Below are positions 1,528-19,790 of a stretch of DNA of 24,000 nt, piece by piece. The position numbers were made by a program, and so were the translations under genes. The notes beneath the pieces were generated by a model that was not told the origin of the DNA, ran no database searches, and saw only the letters and a list, made by a program, of their open reading frames with translations. Numbering within the stretch: position 1 is the first letter of the stretch; the number at the start of each line of letters is the position of its first letter. Source of the stretch: Alkalihalobacillus sp. LMS39 (GTDB lineage: Bacteria; Bacillota; Bacilli; Bacillales; Bacillaceae_F); the NCBI RefSeq assembly GCF_022812285.1, contig NZ_CP093300.1, positions 4,577,171 to 4,601,170 of the forward strand, in the 5' to 3' direction.

Positions 1528-2718
1528 TTATCCTTTTAATAGCATGCTCTCTAGTAACGCTTCTGGAGACAAAAGCTTCTCTCCGCCGCCTTGAGCCATC
1601 GTTTCACTTCCGCCACCTTTCCCATTAATCAATGGTAAAATGGACTTCATAAACTCTTTCATGTTCAGAGAAACATCTTCGCTCCTCGCACAAACGACTT
1701 GAAGTTTTTCTTCGGTTTCACTTATTAAGAAAACAACTACGTTATCTGACTTTTGCGTGATGCTTTTCGCTAGTTGTTGGAGCTCTTGCATTGGCCGCTG
1801 TTGATAGATTTGTTTTACGAGACGATGTCCACTCCAGTCGATGGATTGCTCGATTGCTTTTTCTAATTCTACTTGTAATAGTTCGCTTTTCAACTCGGCA
1901 ATTTCTTTCTCTAACGCTTTTTGTTGTTCAAACACGCGAGTCGCGGCGACCTCTAATTGTTCTTGCGGGGCACTGAATAATGAATTTAATCGTTGAATAA
2001 CTTCGTGTTTTTCATGTAATTGCTGCCGTACTCGATTTCCACAAATAAAATACACACGAGTTTGTTTCTTTTGCTTTTCCCAATGTAAAATCGTTATCGC
2101 ACTCACTTGTCCAGTTGAATTCGGATGAGTTCCCCCGCACCCGTTGTAATCAAAGTTCGGGATAACAACGAGACGAATATTTTCGCTTACGGCTAATGCC
2201 TTTCTTAATGGCAAATCACGGAGTTCTTCTTCTGTCACCCATCTCGTTTCAATTGGATGATTTTCTAGAATAACCTCGTTCGCCCTTTCCTCAACTTGCT
2301 TTGCTTCCGTCTCTGTTAAAGTTGGAATATCAAGGTCAATCGCACAAATCTCTTTTCCTAAATGAAAGCTCATTGTTTTATATCCAAACAACTCTTCAAA
2401 AGCCGCTGTTACAATATGTTGACCAGCATGCTGCTGCATATGGTCAAACCGCCGCTTCCAGTTGATTTCTCCAGTGCATTCTTTCACGTCTAGAGTTTCT
2501 TTCATATAATGACGAACTTCTTCTTCAACTTCCTCAACATCAACTACTTGGACTCCGTTTAGTTGCCCGGTATCATGAGGTTGTCCACCACCAGTCGGAT
2601 AAAAAGCTGTTTTATCTAACACCACATAATGGCCTTTTTCGTCTTGATTTTGTTCCACAATTTGGGCTGTAAATGTTTGTATGTATGGATCTTGATAATA
2701 TAATTTTTTAGTTTTCAC
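1528..2718 (-). CDS. alaX: Alanyl-tRNA editing protein, AlaX-L type (AlaRS editing domain + DHHA1-like C-terminus)
   Basis: It carries the zinc motifs of the AlaRS/ThrRS second additional (editing) domain, HxxxH (HAGQH) and CxxxH (CGGTH). The C-terminus has GKGGGS..MAQGGG, typical of the AlaRS C-terminal DHHA1 region. There is no aminoacylation domain. I prefer a GTG start at 2718 (AAGGGAG 7 nt upstream, N-terminus VKTKKLYYQDPY) over the ORF-track GTG at 2739. Confidence 0.85.
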   Translation of the reverse strand: MKTKKLYYQDPYIQTFTAQIVEQNQDEKGHYVVLDKTAFYPTGGGQPHDTGQLNGVQVVDVEEVEEEVRHYMKETLDVKECTGEINWKRRFDHMQQHAGQHIVTAAFEELFGYKTMSFHLGKEICAIDLDIPTLTETEAKQVEERANEVILENHPIETRWVTEEELRDLPLRKALAVSENIRLVVIPNFDYNGCGGTHPNSTGQVSAITILHWEKQKKQTRVYFICGNRVRQQLHEKHEVIQRLNSLFSAPQEQLEVAATRVFEQQKALEKEIAELKSELLQVELEKAIEQSIDWSGHRLVKQIYQQRPMQELQQLAKSITQKSDNVVVFLISETEEKLQVVCARSEDVSLNMKEFMKSILPLINGKGGGSETMAQGGGEKLLSPEALLESMLLKG

Positions 2719-2739
2719 TCTTGTTCTCCCTTCTGACAC

Positions 2740-2771
2740 AAAAAATGCTTACCTTTTCATTATAGGTAAGC
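2740..2771 (-). terminator. Rho-independent terminator after the XRE/SOR-like gene
   Basis: On the minus strand the stem is GCTTACC (2771..2765) / GGTAAGC (2753..2747), followed by ATTTTTT. The 11-nt loop contains TATAAT, which could double as the -10 of the alaX-like gene. Confidence 0.6.
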
Positions 2772-2793
2772 ACGTTCAGATTGAACAATATTA

Positions 2794-3408
2794 TTATGAA
2801 CTTTTCGCCAAACGACTTGGCTTTTTTATTTCCTTCATCCATAATCCATGTTGATTACAATACACATATAACCGGCCACTTGAAAATTTCGGAACCCGGA
2901 ATTCCGCATTTTGTTCAGGATAAAACGGGATAAACAGCATTTTATCACATGTAACATACGCCGCAAATGCGAGAAAGTGACTTTTACTCATTTCATGCTG
3001 AATGGAGATAAAATAATCTTGTTCAATTTCCTCAACATGGATTTTATGGATTGGGTCCTCTTTTTTCGCTGTTAATGAAGTTAGTTTCCTGCCACAACAA
3101 GCAATATCTGCTTGTGTTGAGCTTGTCATCGTATTGCCGCAGCTTGGACAAACATAGAATAAGATTCGTTTTAGATTTCCTTGATTTTTATCATTAAGCG
3201 CTAATTGTCCTTGAAGAATATTTTCAATATTGACTCCTAATAGGGCAGATAACTCCCCAAGTAACGATACATCTGGACACCCTAACCCACGTTCCCATTT
3301 TGAAATCGTTTTGTCACTAATTCCAATTGCATCGGCAATTTCCTTTTGCGTCATATTCTTTTCCTGCCGAAGCTGAAAAAGTAATTTCCCAATTTTACTG
3401 CAATCCAT
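2794..3408 (-). CDS. XRE-family HTH regulator fused to a desulforedoxin + superoxide-reductase-like (desulfoferrodoxin) module
   Basis: The N-terminus is KIGKLLFQLRQEKNMTQKEIADAIGISDKTISKWERG, a Cro/C1-type HTH. Next comes YVCPSCGN..(9)..ACCG, the desulforedoxin CxxCGN...CCG motif. After that come IHV, QHEMSKSHF and YCNQHGLW, which line up with the SOR centre II ligands (His, His-x5-His, Cys-x2-His). The start is placed at ATG 3408 (GGAGGTG 6 nt upstream). The ORF-track ATG at 3423 is part of that SD. Confidence 0.8.
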   Translation of the reverse strand: MDCSKIGKLLFQLRQEKNMTQKEIADAIGISDKTISKWERGLGCPDVSLLGELSALLGVNIENILQGQLALNDKNQGNLKRILFYVCPSCGNTMTSSTQADIACCGRKLTSLTAKKEDPIHKIHVEEIEQDYFISIQHEMSKSHFLAFAAYVTCDKMLFIPFYPEQNAEFRVPKFSSGRLYVYCNQHGLWMKEIKKPSRLAKSS

Positions 3409-3431
3409 TTCATTCACCTCCATGTAATGAA

Positions 3432-3460
3432 ATGATAGCAGTGGATGAGTGGATCCACAA
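3432..3460 (-). promoter_or_regulatory. Candidate sigma-A promoter of the XRE/SOR-like gene with an overlapping palindrome
   Basis: On the minus strand: TTGTGG (3460..3455), 17 nt, TATCAT (3437..3432). The perfect 10-bp palindrome GTGGATCCAC (3449..3458) overlaps the -35. A GTGGAT direct repeat starts at 3441 and 3449. Confidence 0.4.
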
Positions 3461-3490
3461 TAAACGATCCGTTGAGTATTAATTTAAGGA

Positions 3491-3952
3491 TTAACCTTCG
3501 ACTTTCGCAACACCTAAAGCTAAATGGTCCCAGAGAGTTTGTTCAACTTTCTCAACGAGAGCATCTGGACATTCAATGACAACAACAACTTCGGATGTTT
3601 TGCCTTTCACCTTAATTTTTCGTTTATGTATTACTTTAAAAATGATGTAATCAATCATAAATCCTATGAGAAACCCACTTGCCGCACCAATTAAGCCCCA
3701 ATAAATCGGACCCCATTCTAACACAAAACCAACACTAGCGCCGATGACGGAAAAAGCAGTAGCCAATACCGCTCCTTTATCAAATAAGCTCACCCCATCG
3801 GCACGGTGGAGTGTGTCAAACAATCGTCGTTCCTCCACCCGATTGAATAATGGAACGGCAAGGATATGGGATTTCTCCACACCTATTTTTTCTAACGACG
3901 TCAAGGCTAACTCTAAATAAGTGGTGTGCTCAAAAGTTGAAAAGATTTGCAA
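3491..3952 (-). CDS. Hypothetical membrane protein (soluble N- and C-terminal segments around a glycine-rich two-helix hairpin)
   Basis: 153-aa ORF with a TTG start at 3952 preceded by GAGGTGA 8 nt upstream. The stop of the upstream gene (3956) lies only 3 nt before this start, so the two are likely translationally coupled. The central hydrophobic stretch is GAVLATAFSVIGASVGFVLEWGPIYWGLIGAASGFLIGFMIDYIIF. I recognise no family. Confidence 0.6.
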   Translation of the reverse strand: MQIFSTFEHTTYLELALTSLEKIGVEKSHILAVPLFNRVEERRLFDTLHRADGVSLFDKGAVLATAFSVIGASVGFVLEWGPIYWGLIGAASGFLIGFMIDYIIFKVIHKRKIKVKGKTSEVVVVIECPDALVEKVEQTLWDHLALGVAKVEG

Positions 3953-3955
3953 TGG

Positions 3956-4747
3956 TTATGTCACCTCGTCCGAAAATCCTGAAAGTTTCACTTTGTGTTG
4001 TTGATATTTTTTTCTTAAAAACTTTCGTTGTTCACATTCAAATAGTTTATTGTTTTCTACTGTATTGACATAGGAATCATACATTGAAAAACCAACATGG
4101 GAAGGAATAAACAAAAGCCATTGTGGGTCAAGCTGTTGTGTTGCATAGGAAATGTTCCCTAGAAACAAATAATGAATCGCTAGCAAAATATTTGAAAAAT
4201 AAACAAAAACAATCATAAATATCATTGTAAATACCGCGGTTATAACACGGTGAATATATAATTGGCCTAATCCAGGAGTCAAAAGAGACCAAAGTACAGC
4301 CATCAACGGCCTTCTTTTATCTAAATAATTTATTTCCGCCGCTCCAATTGCATAAGTGTTAAATTCAGCATTCTCCCTTTCCGCCAACATATATACTTTA
4401 TTCATATCAACAGCTGTTCGATAACTATCCCAAATCGAAAAGAGGTACACGGGAATATAGAGCAACATCCACCGAGGTTCGAGTACATCCTTAGCCAAAT
4501 CAATTTTTCCTGTAAAAGAATACATCATAGCCAAATTCAAATTAGACATATTGTTAATCAAAATTTCCCACATAAAAAGGGCGTAACCCCTTAAATACTT
4601 GGATAAGAGAAGATGACCAAAGCCTGGAAAAGCAGCTGACCACCATGCGATTATATATGGATTTCGGAGATGTAGCTGTGTCGTTCCTATTGTACTAACA
4701 TACGCTTTAAACCTACGTTCTTTGTTTGTCGGAGTGAAATTCTGCAT
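3956..4747 (-). CDS. Hypothetical multi-pass membrane protein with an internal two-fold duplication
   Basis: 263-aa ORF with GAGGA 7 nt upstream of ATG 4747. The two halves share W-S-x2-(F/T)PG(F/L)G(H/Q)L ... (P/D)(R/Q)W(M/L)L(L/F) .. IP ... (W/Y)DSY(R/V)(T/N)(A/T)V(D/E)(M/N)NK. Confidence 0.7.
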   Translation of the reverse strand: MQNFTPTNKERRFKAYVSTIGTTQLHLRNPYIIAWWSAAFPGFGHLLLSKYLRGYALFMWEILINNMSNLNLAMMYSFTGKIDLAKDVLEPRWMLLYIPVYLFSIWDSYRTAVDMNKVYMLAERENAEFNTYAIGAAEINYLDKRRPLMAVLWSLLTPGLGQLYIHRVITAVFTMIFMIVFVYFSNILLAIHYLFLGNISYATQQLDPQWLLFIPSHVGFSMYDSYVNTVENNKLFECEQRKFLRKKYQQHKVKLSGFSDEVT

Positions 4748-5658: not shown

Positions 5659-7125
<1,467 letters not shown>

Positions 7126-7136
7126 TCATTTTATGA

Positions 7137-7159
7137 AAAGGGGGAGAGCCCCCCAAAAC
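7137..7159 (-). terminator. Short GC hairpin with flanking T-runs between bglP and bglH (possible partial terminator or processing site)
   Basis: The minus strand reads TTTT GGGGGG CTCT CCCCC TTTT. That is five G-C pairs plus a tetraloop. It lies within the 66-nt bglP-bglH spacer. Confidence 0.3.
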
Positions 7160-7167
7160 ACACGTAA

Positions 7168-9039
<1,872 letters not shown>

Positions 9040-9064
9040 TTAGTAGTTTTTGTTTCGTTCAATG

Positions 9065-9129
9065 AAAAAAACCTAAATTGAGCCTATTGTTTAAGCTCAA
9101 TTTAGGTTTTGCCTGATTCGTCACAATCC
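9065..9129 (-). promoter_or_regulatory. RAT (ribonucleic antiterminator) overlapping an intrinsic terminator, upstream of bglP
   Basis: The minus-strand RAT is GGATTGTGACGAATCAGGCAAAACCTAAA (9129..9101), matching the B. subtilis BglG/SacY-family RAT consensus GGATTGTTACTG..CAGGCAAAACC. The terminator stem is AACCTAAATTGAGC (9108..9095) / GCTCAATTTAGGTT (9083..9070), followed by a T-run. The 3' end of the RAT overlaps the 5' arm of the terminator. Confidence 0.85.
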
Positions 9130-9141
9130 TAAATGTGTATT

Positions 9142-9972
9142 TTATTTTTTTACAACTCTTTCAATATGAATCGTTAAATATAAAAGCTCTTCTTCTGTTA
9201 ATTCATAATCATATTGTTTTTCTACGAACTTTTTAATTTTTTGCGAACACTTATGCGCTTCTGGGTATTTGCCTTTAATAACATTTAACAAGTCATCACC
9301 TTGCTCATTTTGATAATGATTTCCCTTTACGAGACGCTGCGCAAAAAATTTCAAATGGGTAATAAAACGATAATAATTTAATGAAGTTTCATCAAACTCA
9401 ATTTTAAAATGATATTTCACAACCGTTAAAATATCTTGAATGACCTTTGTCATATCAACAATATTATGCATATCCTCATTTAATTGAGCATTCACAAGAT
9501 GTAGGGCAATAAACCCGGCCTCATCTTCAGGAAGAATAACGTTAAATTGGTCAAATATCATATTTAACGCTTCAATGCCAATCTCAAACTCTTCTTTATA
9601 CAGCTGCTTCGTTTCCCAAAGCAATCCATTTTTCACGGGAATGTTTTTATTATGCCGTTCTACCGCAAAATGAAGATGGTCTGTAAGCGAAATGTAAATG
9701 CTATCATTTAACTTCTTGCCTAATTCAAGCTTAGCATAATTAATGATTCTCTCCGATAATTCCATATATTCTAGAGGAATATCCGCAATCAACGTCTTAA
9801 ACTTTTTTGTGATGTCCTTGTCTTCTAACGTGAAGATTTTATCAATTTGTTCATTTGCCACTTCATCCCCAGCTCGCTTTTGAAAGGCAATGCCTCGCCC
9901 CATCACGATAACTTCCTGGTCATCTTTATTTGAAACAATGACATTATTATTTAAAATTTTGACAATCTTCAC
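9142..9972 (-). CDS. licT: BglG/LicT-family transcription antiterminator (CAT RNA-binding domain + two PRDs)
   Basis: The N-terminus VKIVKILNNNVIV...GRGIAFQK is the CAT domain, followed by two PRD repeats. The start is GTG 9972 with GGAGGTG 6 nt upstream. The ORF-track extension to 10098 runs through the leader RAT/terminator and is rejected. Confidence 0.9.
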   Translation of the reverse strand: MKIVKILNNNVIVSNKDDQEVIVMGRGIAFQKRAGDEVANEQIDKIFTLEDKDITKKFKTLIADIPLEYMELSERIINYAKLELGKKLNDSIYISLTDHLHFAVERHNKNIPVKNGLLWETKQLYKEEFEIGIEALNMIFDQFNVILPEDEAGFIALHLVNAQLNEDMHNIVDMTKVIQDILTVVKYHFKIEFDETSLNYYRFITHLKFFAQRLVKGNHYQNEQGDDLLNVIKGKYPEAHKCSQKIKKFVEKQYDYELTEEELLYLTIHIERVVKK

Positions 9973-9998
9973 TTGAAACACCTCCACCACAATCATAT

Positions 9999-10064
9999 AA
10001 AAAGGCAAAACCATATACTTGTGTAGCAAGTAATCGGTTTTGCCTGATTTAACAGTTACAATCC
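9999..10064 (-). promoter_or_regulatory. RAT overlapping an intrinsic terminator in the licT leader
   Basis: The minus-strand RAT is GGATTGTAACTGTTAAATCAGGCAAAACC (10064..10036). The terminator is GGCAAAACC (10044..10036) / GGTTTTGCC (10012..10004), followed by TTTTT (10003..9999). Confidence 0.85.
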
Positions 10065-10086
10065 GTTCATGTATGCGCTTTTTTTC

Positions 10087-10115
10087 ATCATACAACACGT
10101 TTTTTTAATTTGCAA
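10087..10115 (-). promoter_or_regulatory. Candidate sigma-A promoter of the licT-bglPH operon
   Basis: On the minus strand: TTGCAA (10115..10110), a 17-nt spacer, TATGAT (10092..10087). It sits about 20 nt upstream of the leader RAT. Confidence 0.6.
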
Positions 10116-15116: not shown

Positions 15117-15146
15117 AAAAAAACACCCCTCATCATTATAGGAGTG
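15117..15146 (-). terminator. Candidate rho-independent terminator overlapping the exonuclease stop codon
   Basis: The minus-strand stem is CACUCCU (15146..15140) / AGGGGUG (15130..15124), with one G-U pair. It has a 9-nt loop and is followed by TTTTTTT (15123..15117). Confidence 0.55.
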
Positions 15147-15792
15147 CTTTACTCGGATTATCTGTAATATGAAGTAAATCAGCGAGCGTTGTTTTTCCGC
15201 GTTCTTCAAGCAATCGAAGCATTTCAACAAACAAATATGCCGTTGTCAAAGCATCGCCGATCGCACTATGGCGTTCAAACATATTTGTGCCAAACGTGCG
15301 GGCATAGTGGGATAAATCTCGCATATCCCATGACGGATTTAAATAGCCGATTAAATCGAGTGTATCGATAAACTGCGGCTGTTCAAATGTATGCTTTTCT
15401 CTTTTGAGTTCTTTTTTTAAAACAAGAACATCAAAGCTAACATAATGTCCGACCCATCCCGCGCTTTCGGAAGCTTCGATAAATTGAAAAAACTGTTCAA
15501 TTGCTTCTAATGCCTTTGGTGCTTCTTTCACTTTTTCTTCTGTAATTCCTGTTAAACTTTTAATCTCTTTTGGAATCTCTCGTTCTGGATTAACATAAGA
15601 ATGAAACGTCATATCTGTTACTTGTAACCCTTCGACATGGACAGCCCCAATCTCCAATAAGCGGTCTTTTGCTCCGACAGCAAAGCCGGTTGTTTCTGTA
15701 TCAAAAATTGTAAATGACATATCTTTTAACTTTTTATTTAATGGAGGTTGGTGGTCAAGTGTGTAATGGAGTTTTTTCTTTTTCCAAAACAT
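15136..15792 (-). CDS. DEDDh 3'-5' exonuclease (DNA polymerase III epsilon-like)
   Basis: 218 aa. Exo I motif FTIFDTETTG. Exo III-type motif HSAIGDALTTA (H-x4-D). AAAGGAGGAG SD. Confidence 0.85.
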   Translation of the reverse strand: MFWKKKKLHYTLDHQPPLNKKLKDMSFTIFDTETTGFAVGAKDRLLEIGAVHVEGLQVTDMTFHSYVNPEREIPKEIKSLTGITEEKVKEAPKALEAIEQFFQFIEASESAGWVGHYVSFDVLVLKKELKREKHTFEQPQFIDTLDLIGYLNPSWDMRDLSHYARTFGTNMFERHSAIGDALTTAYLFVEMLRLLEERGKTTLADLLHITDNPSKALL

Positions 15793-15866
15793 AAATGCTC
15801 CTCCTTTGCTTGAGGTTGTGTCACCCCTTTTTTATATGACCCGTTCGTTTAGACACAACATCTCAA

Positions 15867-17798
15867 TTATGTCATTCCAAATTCTCGTAACGCTTGCTGT
15901 TGAAGAGACCGAATCGTTTTTAATGCTGCCATCAGTTGCTCTTTGTCACGTGAGCGCAGATGGGTAAAATGAATATCACTTGTTTGTGTTTCATTTCGTT
16001 TTTGTTTTGTCCATCCTTGATCGACACGGATTTTTAGGATCGTTTCATACGCGTATAAAAGCTCTTCAACAAAAGAGGGAGTAAAGACACCTCTTTGTTG
16101 CAATGCGTCGATTTTTTGCTCTGGAAAGCCACCAACAATATGATGCTGAGCAGCAAGCATTTGCAAAGAATGATGAAATGGAAATAGAGCTTCTTTTTTT
16201 ACATCTAACGTCGTTCGTTTCACCCGAAATAACGCTCGAATCGGATGATCGAGTGTTGGAACGGGATGTTCTCGTTCTTGTTTGGCCATTCGGTAAAAAA
16301 AGATGCGGGAATGACTTAGTTCGGTATTTACGATTTGTTCAAACTCATCATAAAGATGACGGTCACCATGAACAAAACGGAAGGATAAAAAGTTTTGCGC
16401 AAGGAGGATATTTTCATTTGTTGCTCGAATGCCCCACCTTCTAATTTTTTCTTTCCAATCTGTTACAGTTCCTCGCCACGCTTTTTCACTTGCCATCATT
16501 TTTCCTAGACATTGAGAATATCCTGCTTGTTCGAGGTGACGGACGATTTCCTGACTTACGTTTTCAAAATACACTTCGGCTCCTTCGCCTTCCCCATAGA
16601 CAAGAAAATGGTCTTGGTCTGTCAGCAAAAATTGTTCTCCTCTTCCCCCGCTCCCCATTTGCATAAAGCAAAACGAGGCAGGCGGCATGCCACCTCCTTT
16701 TTCATATACAGACTGGACGGCGAGTTCCACACAATGGGAAACAAGGCGATCATATAATTTTGTAATGATTTCTAATGAGTGCGTTGTCGGGATTCGGTCT
16801 TGAATTAAATGCCCGAGCACTTCATAAATCGCGAGCTTGACTTCTGGTAATGTATCAAACGATGCGTCTTCGATCGTTTGTAAAATTTCCATCGTACCAC
16901 GATTCTTTTTCCGTAATAAATCGGCCATCGTCACCATACCGACGACATGATCATTTTCTATGACCGGCAAATGTTTAATTCCATTCATTAAAAAACTCGA
17001 CATCGCCTCGTAATAATACGCATCATAAGAAATCGTATACGGGTTTTCCGTCATCACGTTTTCAACAACCATTGTGTTTGGATGACCTTCACCAACAATA
17101 CGAGTCACAACATCTTTTTCCGTCATAATGCCAACAAGTTTGTTTTGTTCGTTTAATATAACGACTGAACTTGTTTGGTTTTTTGCCATTTTTTCTACGA
17201 CTTCTTTAACGGTTGCTGTCGTATACACAGATACAACAGGTTCATTCATCACATCTGCCATTCGTCTGACAAACGGTTCACTTTCGCCCCACTGACTTGC
17301 AAGCTTCACTTGTTCTGCTAACGAACCATAAACATCCTGCAAGCGAACAGCTAGCTGCCGGAGAATAAAGTCTCGTACTGATTCATCGTGCCAACGTTCT
17401 TCGATGACAGAATACGGAATTTGCAAGCAATGACAGTTCGACACTGCCATTACTTCAACGGTATAAGAAGGAGAGCTATGTTTTGTTTCTCCTAAAAAAT
17501 CAGCTAAACTGGAAAATCCAATTATGTCCCCCGCTTCAAGCACTTCAAGCACTTCTTTATCATGAAAGCTATCGTCATTTTGAATATAAACTTCAGCCAT
17601 TCCAGATAACAGCAGTAAAAGCCCTTCGCGTGGTGTTTTCGAATAAAGGACTTTTTCTGATTTTCCATATTCCTTTAACATACATTGTTCAAGCAGTTGC
17701 TCAAACTCACGAATGGGCACCCCCAAAAAGAGGGGGTGCTTATGAATTTGTTCGAGTTGGTTATTTTCCGACCGACTCATCCATCCATACCTCACCAT
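15867..17798 (-). CDS. Signal-transduction protein: cyclic-nucleotide-binding domain + CBS pair + DUF294 nucleotidyltransferase + DUF294 C-terminal domain
   Basis: The N-terminal ~140 aa are cNMP-binding-like. Tandem CBS motifs span about residues 180-300. The nucleotidyltransferase signature is MGSGGRGEQFLLTDQDH (GS-x9-D-x-D). A helical domain forms the C-terminus. The start is either ATG 17798 or, more likely, ATG 17780 (GGTGAGG 9 nt upstream). Either start overlaps the 3' end of the symporter gene, by 38 or 20 nt. Confidence 0.8.
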   Translation of the reverse strand: MVRYGWMSRSENNQLEQIHKHPLFLGVPIREFEQLLEQCMLKEYGKSEKVLYSKTPREGLLLLLSGMAEVYIQNDDSFHDKEVLEVLEAGDIIGFSSLADFLGETKHSSPSYTVEVMAVSNCHCLQIPYSVIEERWHDESVRDFILRQLAVRLQDVYGSLAEQVKLASQWGESEPFVRRMADVMNEPVVSVYTTATVKEVVEKMAKNQTSSVVILNEQNKLVGIMTEKDVVTRIVGEGHPNTMVVENVMTENPYTISYDAYYYEAMSSFLMNGIKHLPVIENDHVVGMVTMADLLRKKNRGTMEILQTIEDASFDTLPEVKLAIYEVLGHLIQDRIPTTHSLEIITKLYDRLVSHCVELAVQSVYEKGGGMPPASFCFMQMGSGGRGEQFLLTDQDHFLVYGEGEGAEVYFENVSQEIVRHLEQAGYSQCLGKMMASEKAWRGTVTDWKEKIRRWGIRATNENILLAQNFLSFRFVHGDRHLYDEFEQIVNTELSHSRIFFYRMAKQEREHPVPTLDHPIRALFRVKRTTLDVKKEALFPFHHSLQMLAAQHHIVGGFPEQKIDALQQRGVFTPSFVEELLYAYETILKIRVDQGWTKQKRNETQTSDIHFTHLRSRDKEQLMAALKTIRSLQQQALREFGMT

Positions 17799-19425
17799 CG
17801 CGATATGTCATTTGTTCTGGGTAGCGAAGGTCTGTGACTTCATCTTGAATTTTTTGTGATGGAGCTGCTGTCATTTTCGAAACAACATATGTGACAAGTA
17901 AGTTTACGGGAACCCCAATTAACCCCGCTCCTGTATCTTGAATGCCAGCAATCATAAATGTTCCGCTTTGAGCAAGGAAAATATACGTTAGCGTCACAGT
18001 TAAACCGGATAACATTCCGGCAATGGCACCTGGTGCATTACATCGTTTCCACCAAACCCCTAGCAATAAAACAGGGAAGAAAGTTCCACCTGCAAGAGCA
18101 AAGGCCCAAGCGACAATTTGTGTAATTACACCTGGTGGATCAAGTGCAACAATACCGGCGACAACTGTTGCTAAGACGATTGCAATTCGTCCTGCTGCTA
18201 GACGACGTTTGTCTGTCGCTTTCGGATTCATTAACCGATAATAAATATCATGGGCAAACGACGAGGATATCGTAATTAAAAGTCCTCCGGCTGTTGATAA
18301 GGCTGCCGCCATCGCACCTGCTGCCACTAACCCAATAACAAACATTCCTAAGTTTGCAATTTCCGGTGTTGCCATCACGACGATATCATTACTAATCATA
18401 ATTTCAGACCATTCTAATATCCCGTCTCCATTTGTATCTGCAATTTGCAGTCGGCCTGTATCGACCCAGCTTTGTGTCCAAGCTGGTAGTGAATCGATTG
18501 GTTGCCCTGCGACTTGTGTCATTAAAATAAAGCGAGAAAACGCCGCATACGCAGGAGCCGATAAGTATAATAACGCGATAAAAAGAAGTGCCCATGCTCC
18601 ACTCCAACGTGCCGCCTTCATCGTTGCTACCGTATAAAAGCGAACAATGACGTGTGGAAGTGCAGCTGTCCCTACCATGAGGGTAAATAGGAGCGCAATA
18701 AATTGTGATTTTTCACTATTCGCAAACGGGGCGAAATACTCACTTAACCCAAGTTCACGGTCAAGATCGCCTAATTGACTAACAATATTTCCATATGTTA
18801 ACCACGGTAATGGGTTATTCGTAATTTGTAGCGACATAAACACAATCGGAATAATATAAGCAATAATTAAAATGATATATTGTGCGACTTGTGTCCACGT
18901 AATCCCTTTCATTCCCCCAAGGGTCGCATATATTGCAATAACGACGACTCCAATCATCGTTCCATACATGGCATCGATGTTTAAGATACGTCCGATAACA
19001 ACACCAGAACCAGAAAGCTGGCCGATGATATAAACAAAACTAATAATTATGGTCGCAATCGCCGCAATCAGCCTGGCCGGATTGGAATCAAATCGGTCTC
19101 CTATAAATTCGGGTACCGTATACCGACCATATTTTCTTAATTGTGGTGCCAATAAGAAAGTTAAGAATAAGTACCCACCAGTCCAACCCATTATATAAGC
19201 TAAACCGTCATATCCTAAAATCATGACTGTTCCTGCCATCCCGATAAAGGATGCAGCACTCATCCAGTCACCACCGATGGCCATCCCATTCCATACTGGA
19301 GGTACGCCCCGGCTTGCTACATAAAAGTCAGATGTTGCTTTTGCACGATTATAAACGGAAATTCCAATGTACAATCCAAATGTCGCCATGATCATTAATA
19401 CTGATACAATTGATTGTGAATCCAA
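17761..19425 (-). CDS. Sodium:solute symporter family (SSS) large subunit, of the type paired with DUF4212
   Basis: 554-aa polytopic protein with about 13-14 TM helices. It has SSS-type motifs (GGDWMSAASFIG, GGMKG.TWTQVAQ). The TTG start at 19425 has GAGGAGGAA upstream. It lies directly downstream of a DUF4212 gene. Confidence 0.85.
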   Translation of the reverse strand: MDSQSIVSVLMIMATFGLYIGISVYNRAKATSDFYVASRGVPPVWNGMAIGGDWMSAASFIGMAGTVMILGYDGLAYIMGWTGGYLFLTFLLAPQLRKYGRYTVPEFIGDRFDSNPARLIAAIATIIISFVYIIGQLSGSGVVIGRILNIDAMYGTMIGVVVIAIYATLGGMKGITWTQVAQYIILIIAYIIPIVFMSLQITNNPLPWLTYGNIVSQLGDLDRELGLSEYFAPFANSEKSQFIALLFTLMVGTAALPHVIVRFYTVATMKAARWSGAWALLFIALLYLSAPAYAAFSRFILMTQVAGQPIDSLPAWTQSWVDTGRLQIADTNGDGILEWSEIMISNDIVVMATPEIANLGMFVIGLVAAGAMAAALSTAGGLLITISSSFAHDIYYRLMNPKATDKRRLAAGRIAIVLATVVAGIVALDPPGVITQIVAWAFALAGGTFFPVLLLGVWWKRCNAPGAIAGMLSGLTVTLTYIFLAQSGTFMIAGIQDTGAGLIGVPVNLLVTYVVSKMTAAPSQKIQDEVTDLRYPEQMTYRDGEVWMDESVGK

Positions 19426-19487
19426 ATTGGTTCCTCCTCGTCCTACTACTCTCTACTAAGAATAGGCTACTTTTTTTGCTAACATCA

Positions 19488-19790
19488 TTAATGGTCTACT
19501 GTTTTTCCAGCGCTTAAGCGGACATTTTCTTCTTCGTTTATACCGAATTTTCTGTCTATTCTGTCGCTAACAATGGCATTGACAAACAACATAACGACAA
19601 AGGTAACAACTGCGCCTTGGGCCGCCATATAGTAGTGGAATGGCATCCCCATAAATTGAATGTTTTGCAATGATTCTGCAAAAAAGACAACACCAAATGA
19701 TGCTAATCCGCCAATAAGTAAGCAAATAACAATAATTGTATTTCTCGCTTTAAAATAAGCATCTGCTACTGATTTATCAATTTTTTTCAT
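19488..19790 (-). CDS. DUF4212 protein (putative solute:sodium symporter small subunit)
   Basis: 100 aa with two TM helices. The sequence pattern is FFAESLQNIQFMGMPFHYYMAAQGAVVTFVVMLFVNA...DRKFG, as I remember for the DUF4212/TIGR03647 family. AAAGGAGGTG SD. Confidence 0.8.
   Translation of the reverse strand: MKKIDKSVADAYFKARNTIIVICLLIGGLASFGVVFFAESLQNIQFMGMPFHYYMAAQGAVVTFVVMLFVNAIVSDRIDRKFGINEEENVRLSAGKTVDH

Follow-up and report, generated by a model that had tools for sequence, protein, structure and literature searches.

The 24,000-nt stretch of the Alkalihalobacillus sp. LMS39 genome analysed here (contig NZ_CP093300.1, positions 4,577,171 to 4,601,170; hereafter the window) encodes a protein in which an XRE-type helix-turn-helix (HTH) domain is fused to a complete desulforedoxin (Dx) and superoxide reductase (SOR) module. 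The fusion is real and lies far beyond what chance would produce. We propose, with about even confidence, that this HTH-Dx-SOR protein is an autoregulated one-component transcription factor that senses redox state or superoxide by means of iron, the two-iron SOR module serving as its sensor. On this proposal the module would be a sensor rather than an enzyme. The gene is an ordinary member, in an unusual, aerobic Bacillus-like host, of a class of proteins that is catalogued and uncharacterised.

Residue numbers refer throughout to the frame of a 209-aa open reading frame (ORF), whose M6 is the true start. The Pfam family HTH_3 (PF01381) matches residues 17-67 with E 9e-16 (58.1 bits; cutoff 23), and the AlphaFold model, which has a mean predicted local distance difference test (pLDDT) score of 82.8, folds the domain into five helices (8-21, 26-33, 37-44, 52-62 and 66-71). 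The best matches of the model in the Protein Data Bank (PDB) are two-iron SORs (2Fe-SORs): chain 2JI2_A aligns over 123 columns with a Foldseek E of 4.9e-9, a template modelling (TM) score by target of 0.76 and a root-mean-square deviation of 2.7 A, and the modelled protein thus has the two-domain SOR fold. Desulfoferrodoxin 1DFX aligns end to end with residues 86-198 (E 1.8e-5), and a profile of 120 homologues finds the D. baarsii SOR with E 1e-12. The initial annotation had read an HTH, a desulforedoxin and an SOR centre II from the letters of the sequence, a fusion now borne out by profile, by structure-sequence alignment and by model fold; the AlphaFold model that it called for recovers the 2Fe-SOR fold. 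The profile search that it suggested came out as expected for HTH_3, which scores above its cutoff, and less clearly for the SOR part, which stays under the curated thresholds of both Desulfoferrodox PF01880 (19.7 against 22.2 bits) and TIGR00320 (34.6 against 146.9) and yet is reached by the family profile. Matches to phage repressors and antitoxins (RstR, MqsA, HipB) were far under cutoffs and confined to the HTH region, and we rejected that identity.

All nine predicted metal ligands are present, as the initial annotation had supposed: C92, C95, C109 and C110 for the Fe(Cys)4 centre I, and H126, H143, H149, C189 and H192 for centre II. In a joint alignment with D. baarsii SOR, the four Dx cysteines correspond to C10, C13, C29 and C30, H143 to H69, H149 to H75, C189 to C116 and H192 to H119. 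The His-x5-His spacing that had been pointed out is therefore that of H143 and H149, and the segment YCNQHG does supply the later pair, C189 and H192. The published 2Fe-SOR motif is C(xx)C(x)15CC ... H(x)19-27H(x)5H(x)40-63C(x)2H (PMC11980386). The Fe(Cys)4 set of the window protein has x13 rather than x15, and its centre II set (the equivalents of His49, His69, His75, Cys116 and His119) has x16 between the first two histidines, followed by x5, x39 and x2; neither connecting loop reaches the length given in that motif. Set beside D. baarsii 2JI1 and D. desulfuricans 1DFX, the window protein has their fold (TM 0.76) as well as their ligand sets, Fe(Cys)4 in centre I and Fe(His)4Cys in centre II, and is presumably dimeric too. 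It differs from them in being about 22% identical and under the curated hidden Markov model cutoffs, in carrying an N-terminal DNA-binding domain, in a Dx loop two residues shorter and a His49-His69 loop three residues shorter, and in having no Lys48 and a Pro at the position of Glu47. Although the protein has the desulfoferrodoxin fold and ligands, the curated thresholds and its lack of the enzymes' Glu-Lys-His motif place it outside the enzyme family proper.

Conservation was assessed in 120 close homologues (56-67% identical) and in 76 species-level genomes (41-63% identical). The four Dx cysteines are invariant in both sets (120/120 and 76/76). H143, H149 and C189 are each invariant among the close homologues and present in 75, 73 and 73 of the 76 distant ones, respectively. 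H126 is found in 120/120 close and 56/76 distant homologues, with Glu or Asp replacing it in 13 of the latter, and H192 in 112/120 and 62/76, with Asp in 7.

These alignments also fix the register of the first centre II histidine. The initial annotation had equated the histidine of KIHVEE, residue 129, with that of the enzyme motif EKHVP, a match that a pairwise alignment with 1DFX reproduces and that is three residues out. Position 129 holds T, K, N, R or V in the 120 close homologues and is unconserved in the 76 distant ones, whereas H126 is conserved, and the profile alignment sets the E/D-x-H126 of the family on E47-K48-H49 of D. baarsii SOR; H129 was rejected as an iron ligand on these grounds. 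Since H126, and not H129, corresponds to His49, the window protein has P124-I125-H126 where the enzymes have Glu47-Lys48-His49. The catalytic Lys is indeed missing, as had been noted, while the replacing residues are Pro-Ile rather than Lys-Ile, and the family as a whole mostly keeps the Glu47 position as Glu or Asp (94/120), with only 4/120 carrying Lys where the enzymes have Lys48. Substitution of Lys48 slows the reaction of the enzymes. Catalytic roles of Glu47 and Lys48 are reported in papers that PMC3116461 cites: Lys48 reportedly matters for turnover by the D. baarsii enzyme (Lombard 2001), and natural SORs that have no Glu ligand are said to be active nonetheless (Rodrigues et al. 2008), so that loss of the Glu and Lys alone does not exclude catalysis.

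We further investigated the promoters of the family. Regions 5' of the start codons were aligned for 80 genome loci encoding relatives, and 12-kb flanks were scanned with a position weight matrix (PWM). The alignment revealed a motif of about 20 nt, AACTCTACGGAGCGTT[T/G][A/G]TTG, whose end lies 44-49 nt 5' of the ATG. The scan found one strong site per locus, in constant orientation, in about 76 of the 80 loci and in the window, and nothing of similar strength elsewhere in the 12-kb flanks of the genome loci. The 24-kb window holds a single match (3458..3478), where 0.12 would be expected. At loci that have small genes ahead of the regulator (L015, L024, L032, L044, L051, L065 and L077), the motif fronts the first gene of the operon. 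Its final TTG opens the -35 element. In 113 of 128 unique sites the distance from TTGnnn to the best -10 is exactly 17 nt, and a -10 with at least 4/6 matches to TATAAT is found in 116 of them. A sigma-54 promoter (TGGCACG-N4-TTGC), an extracytoplasmic function (ECF) sigma promoter (AAC-N16/17-CGT) and a lone Spx -44 AGCA element were each considered as identities for the motif and rejected, their spacing and extent being unfit and a good sigma-A -10 lying 17 nt past the TTG.

The best symmetry centre of the motif is its position 11, which gives an imperfect dyad, A.TC.ACG-N3-CGT.GA.T (3459..3477), with half-sites 11 bp apart and its centre at about -43. A second, overlapping centre lies at position 8.5 (AACTCTAC|GGAGCGTT); by our own count the window site fits the position-11 dyad better. 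Variants of the recognition-helix region of the HTH go together with variants of the motif: ISDKTISKWERG (SDK..WERG) with ACTCTACG...CGTTkATT, V[VL]PKTVSKWETG with TGTACG...GTGGATT (TGTACG..GTGGATTG), S[ND]K..SKWECG with AGTCTACG...CGT[G/A]G, and SEQ with TAAACG. Such covariation is what direct readout would be expected to produce. Across the genome loci, the regulator is the one gene that regularly accompanies the motif. From this linkage and the covariation we infer that the protein binds this conserved element in its own promoter.

The motif was also used as the starting point of an unbiased scan of metagenome contigs with a 16-mer, which returned at least 120 loci. Among the matches listed, the HTH-Dx-SOR gene lies within 1.2 kb downstream at 73, and most of the others have no TTG extension, as chance 16-mers would, or are truncated at the end of a contig; full motifs without the regulator mostly precede genes for CatA-like, FMN_red, DUF2087 or GIY-YIG-like proteins. 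The CatA-like acetyltransferase matches PF00302 with E 1e-55 and stays under the CatA equivalog cutoff, the FMN_red flavoprotein carries a CxxCxxCx7C motif and is, by our reading, Isf-like, and the GIY-YIG-like protein has about 115 aa. The same four families, together with isochorismatase-family and GNAT genes, occur in operons with the regulator at the genome loci. Of the 153 strong sites listed in all, 133 have the regulator downstream, 102 of these with none of the other families; the other families stand alone at 10, and 10 have neither or are truncated. An isochorismatase-family hydrolase gene directly follows or overlaps the regulator in Paenibacillus ehimensis (L020, 6614..7144) and Gracilibacillus ureilyticus (L034, 6467..7162), which suggests a lineage-specific operon partner in those two Bacilli.

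In the mechanism that we propose, the SOR module would dimerise like the 2Fe-SORs and place two HTH domains on the imperfect dyad near -43. Superoxide would oxidise the centre II iron from Fe(II) to Fe(III), which would alter the loop after the Dx domain and hence the affinity for DNA; oxidation by H2O2 or O2, or binding of NO, would be less likely triggers. The Dx centre would then re-reduce and reset the sensor. The output would be the gene itself and, in other genomes, also those for the CatA-like acetyltransferase, the Isf-like FMN reductase, the GIY-YIG-like, the DUF2087 and the isochorismatase-family proteins. We lean slightly towards repression by the reduced protein with release on oxidation, because promoters with a near-invariant TTG, good -10 boxes and a 17-nt spacer should fire without an activator. 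By analogy with lambda cI at OR2 (-42), class II activation would be equally compatible with the position of the site.

Several points weigh against this proposal. Iron binding, dimerisation, DNA binding and signal are all predicted from sequence and its comparison. A full ligand set and an invariant Dx centre are also what an active enzyme would keep, and control of the regulator's own gene only, at 102 of the 153 listed sites, is odd for a pure sensor and would fit a protein that is its own effector. The Pro at the Glu47 position would make a Glu-on/Glu-off switch inoperable in this member. Both dyads, centred at positions 11 and 8.5, fit the motif, which leaves the half-sites ambiguous, and phylogeny confounds the covariation of HTH and motif. 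The scan spanned 12-24 kb per genome, and the list of regulon genes is accordingly partial.

The main rival, which we consider unlikely, is a trigger enzyme, that is, a working superoxide reductase whose HTH merely sets its own expression by homeostatic feedback. The five conserved centre II ligands with an electron-transferring Dx centre would be expected of it, as would the 102 sites with the regulator as the sole family gene, and the reported activity of Glu-less natural SORs (Rodrigues 2008) would permit it. A lysine reported as important to the D. baarsii enzyme (Lombard 2001) is, however, absent essentially family-wide, the module is about 22% identical to the enzymes and under the curated SOR thresholds, and some members have Asp or Glu in place of His ligands. 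The motif also precedes unrelated detoxification-type genes with no regulator in cis.

The Dx-SOR module might instead be a scaffold, with or without metal, that serves purely for dimerisation of an otherwise ordinary XRE repressor, one that receives no redox signal. XRE regulators require a dimerisation domain and 2Fe-SORs are obligate dimers, as the matched PDB entries indicate; the nine ligands, though, are under purifying selection across Bacilli, Clostridia, Negativicutes and spirochaete metagenome-assembled genomes (MAGs), and we regard a pure scaffold as improbable. Slightly more doubtful still is an iron-availability sensor in the manner of Fur or DtxR, in which the metal occupancy of the Dx centre, of centre II or of both, and not redox state, would govern DNA binding. 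Two conserved iron sites would suit it, and metal-dependent repressors of XRE and other types are common; yet the motif-linked genes encode an acetyltransferase, a flavoprotein and a hydrolase and none serves iron uptake or storage, and the Fe(Cys)4 and Fe(His)4Cys sites of SORs bind iron tightly, with no known equilibration with a labile pool. Least probable of all is binding of the motif by another factor, an Spx-like -44 element or other global regulator, with HTH-Dx-SOR binding elsewhere: the link from protein to motif comes from comparison, and the AGCG at about -43..-40 is near the position of AGCA in Spx-dependent promoters, but the roughly 20 conserved positions go far beyond an Spx element, sigma-54 and ECF spacings are unfit by our own reading, motif and HTH vary together, no further conserved gene goes with the motif, and the motif accompanies the gene into spirochaete MAGs and Negativicutes (L068, L071 and L075).

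If the iron-based sensor is correct, a factor built on the iron centre of an SOR would sense superoxide directly and would illustrate how the active site of an enzyme can be taken over for signalling. The sensing of superoxide itself in Firmicutes, notably in strict anaerobes, is poorly understood. Known regulators such as PerR, Spx/OseR, Rex and sigma-B answer to peroxide, thiol or NADH status. SoxR, a [2Fe-2S] MerR-family protein, senses superoxide and redox-cycling drugs in Proteobacteria and Actinobacteria. The likeness to SoxR is one of function only: both would be one-component iron-based redox sensors with a small detoxification-type regulon, whereas fold and DNA-binding family are unrelated, and SoxR binds the spacer between -35 and -10 and activates through DNA distortion while the window site lies upstream of the -35 and overlaps it. 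The repressors of lambda (cI), P22 (C2) and 434 share the Cro-C1 HTH family with the window protein, as PDB sequence matches indicate. Their operators, like the predicted one, are dyads that span about 17-19 bp and have their half-sites spaced by one helical turn, and the predicted operator is positioned like OR2 at PRM (centre -42), with an overlap of about 2 bp with the -35. Unlike theirs, the C-terminal domain of the window protein is a metalloprotein and not a LexA-like protease or oligomerisation domain, and there is no phage context.

The fused class itself has been named before. SORGOdb lists an HTH-Dx-SOR class of 19 proteins, defined by domain content only and without biochemistry (Lucchetti-Miganeh et al., 2011; PMC3116461), as the initial annotation had stated, and the window protein has its HTH, its Dx with CxxC...CC and its SOR centre II in the same order. 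The class came without function, operator, regulon or ligand-register analysis; the member described here is from a Bacillaceae-like genome. The searchable literature, which takes in few subscription journals and in which absence is not proof, yielded no experimental study of the fused class, in agreement with the initial annotation, and likewise no regulatory study or description of an operator or regulon. The one apparent lead, TrtA of Treponema denticola (PMC12724145), was set aside as unrelated: this XRE protein has 104 aa and no Dx-SOR module. The predicted operator and the genes linked to it, which appear not to have been described before, would open this 15-year-old database category to experiment.

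Relatives at the 80 loci are mostly from Clostridia, with a few Bacilli (Rossellomorea, Neobacillus, Paenibacillus, Gracilibacillus), Sporomusa, Desulfosporosinus and two spirochaete MAGs; the family is large, the Dx-SOR module alone being found in 318 representative clusters at 50% identity (E <= 1e-10). We tentatively extend the proposal to this wider group: HTH-Dx-SOR proteins may be widespread, unrecognised superoxide- or redox-sensing factors of Firmicutes, with spirochaete outliers, that use the non-haem Fe(His)4Cys centre as sensor and, as a Gram-positive functional counterpart of SoxR, act at a 19-20-bp operator near -43 on a small detoxification regulon (genes for CatA-like acetyltransferase, Isf-like flavoprotein, GIY-YIG-like or DUF2087 and isochorismatase-family proteins). 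The motif core of the window, ACTCAACGGATCGTT (3463..3477), is the same as that of a Treponema sp. MAG (L071, about 5936..5950), where the Clostridia consensus is ACTCTACGGAGCGTT; convergence or horizontal transfer of gene and promoter could explain the shared core.

The features of the gene and its promoter are collected in the table below. The longest ORF (2794..3423, minus strand, 209 aa in the ORF listing) begins at an ATG at 3423 that the ribosome-binding site (RBS) overlaps, while the ATG at 3408 is suitably spaced from the RBS and corresponds to the family start MDC.K; the coding sequence is therefore 2794..3408, and the gene bounds first annotated stand. A promoter and a terminator of its own had likewise been claimed for the gene, and both were found, by sequence reading, family comparison and folding; a scanner for consensus promoters and terminators missed the two elements. 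With them a monocistronic unit is plausible. No terminator was seen between the upstream gene of unknown function (stop at 3491) and the HTH-Dx-SOR promoter, and some read-through into the gene is therefore possible.

Table. Coordinates of the HTH-Dx-SOR gene, its protein domains and ligands, and the surrounding regulatory elements in the window.
Feature	Position	Strand	Remarks
HTH-Dx-SOR coding sequence	2794..3408	-	204 aa plus stop; matches 204-aa database protein P0001
XRE/Cro-C1-type HTH domain	3208..3390	-	residues ~12-72; recognition-helix region ISDKTISKWERG almost invariant in the family
Flexible linker	3178..3204	-	residues 74-82; pLDDT <50, disordered
Desulforedoxin-like domain (centre I)	3070..3168	-	Fe(Cys)4 ligand set
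SOR centre II domain	2824..3069	-	five predicted ligands; P124-I125 at the enzyme Glu47-Lys48 positions
Centre I ligands	C92 3148..3150; C95 3139..3141; C109 3097..3099; C110 3094..3096	-	CxxCx13CC
Centre II ligands	H126 3046..3048; H143 2995..2997; H149 2977..2979; C189 2857..2859; H192 2848..2850	-	
RBS GGAGGTG	3415..3421	-	6 nt ahead of ATG 3408; arrangement also seen in relatives
-10 hexamer TATCAT	3432..3437	-	sequence reading and family promoter comparison
-35 hexamer TTGTGG	3455..3460	-	read from sequence; 17-nt spacer to the -10
Conserved family-specific promoter motif TACTCAACGGATCGTTTATTG	3458..3478	-	family consensus AACTCTACGGAGCGTTkATTG; contains the predicted operator dyad (3459..3477); abuts/enters the -35
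Palindrome GTGGATCCAC	3449..3458	.	last four -35 bases and first six spacer bases; immediately 3' of the motif
Intrinsic terminator	2745..2773	-	hairpin with 10-bp stem and U-run; -16.2 kcal/mol, z -3.4; ahead of the AlaX-like gene

The initial annotation had proposed a different operator, a palindrome around GGATCC at 3441..3460. Perfect palindromes of ten bp number 24 in the window and about 30 in shuffles, and GTGGATCCAC is absent from the orthologous promoters in the aligned upstream regions of relatives. We rejected it as an operator for its chance-level frequency and lack of conservation, and it probably has no function; the conserved element is the adjacent motif.

The surroundings are Bacillaceae-like (38% GC; licT, phosphotransferase system (PTS) and bglH genes; sortase and LPXTG genes), which agrees with the Bacillus-like context first noted for a family whose relatives are mostly Clostridia. 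The neighbours are a methyl-accepting chemotaxis protein (MCP), an AlaX-like editing protein, two unknown membrane proteins and a bgl operon, and the window holds none of the motif-linked accessory genes (CatA-like, FMN_red, DUF2087, GIY-YIG-like, isochorismatase-family or GNAT). No other Bacilli locus shares any of the three immediate neighbours, and the sole matches were weak ones to MCP in three non-Bacilli loci. Flanking genes differ in nearly every genome, and conserved synteny was discarded as a guide to the regulon. Upstream on the same strand lie two hydrophobic proteins, of 153 aa (3491..3952, minus) and 263 aa (3956..4747, minus), neither with a significant Pfam or NCBIfam match (the larger reaches DUF5683 with E 9.7e-4, 19.6 against 26.7 bits) and neither seen beside the regulator in other genomes. 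Downstream, a stand-alone AlaX-like alanyl-tRNA editing protein (1528..2739, minus) combines tRNA_SAD, DHHA1 and a fragment of alanyl-tRNA synthetase; its start is likely GTG 2718 and not 2739, and a gene call elsewhere gives 396 aa. An aryl-beta-glucoside operon (5659..10098, minus) encodes a LicT/BglG-type antiterminator (CAT_RBD and PRD), a PTS EIIBCA protein and a GH1 phospho-beta-glucosidase. A further cluster (15136..19790, minus) comprises DUF4212, a sodium:solute symporter, a cNMP-binding/CBS/DUF294 nucleotidyltransferase and an RNase T-like exonuclease, a gene set that is recurrent and poorly understood.

Other observations concern the protein family. Two HTH cysteines, C8 (3400..3402) and C49 (3277..3279), are conserved in 114/120 and 117/120 close homologues; among the distant ones both occur in 39, C49 alone in 24, C8 alone in 3 and neither in 10. 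A C8-C49 thiol pair, as a thiol switch or extra metal contact, was considered and dropped as weakly co-conserved and unsupported. The same clade contains Dx-SOR-only proteins of about 116 aa (P0128, P0132, P0141, P0143 and P0146) that begin at a Met matching M84 of the window protein (3172..3174), a residue conserved in 108/120 fused proteins. These forms could be true stand-alone proteins, fragments at contig edges or products of an internal start that yields an HTH-less protein. Dx-SOR-like modules also occur in other architectures (P0150, 488 aa; P0142, 311 aa; P0180, 356 aa): in one, an HTH-Dx-SOR protein carries a long C-terminal extension that looks methyltransferase-like by eye, and in another the module follows an unrelated N-terminal region of about 200 aa with no HTH.

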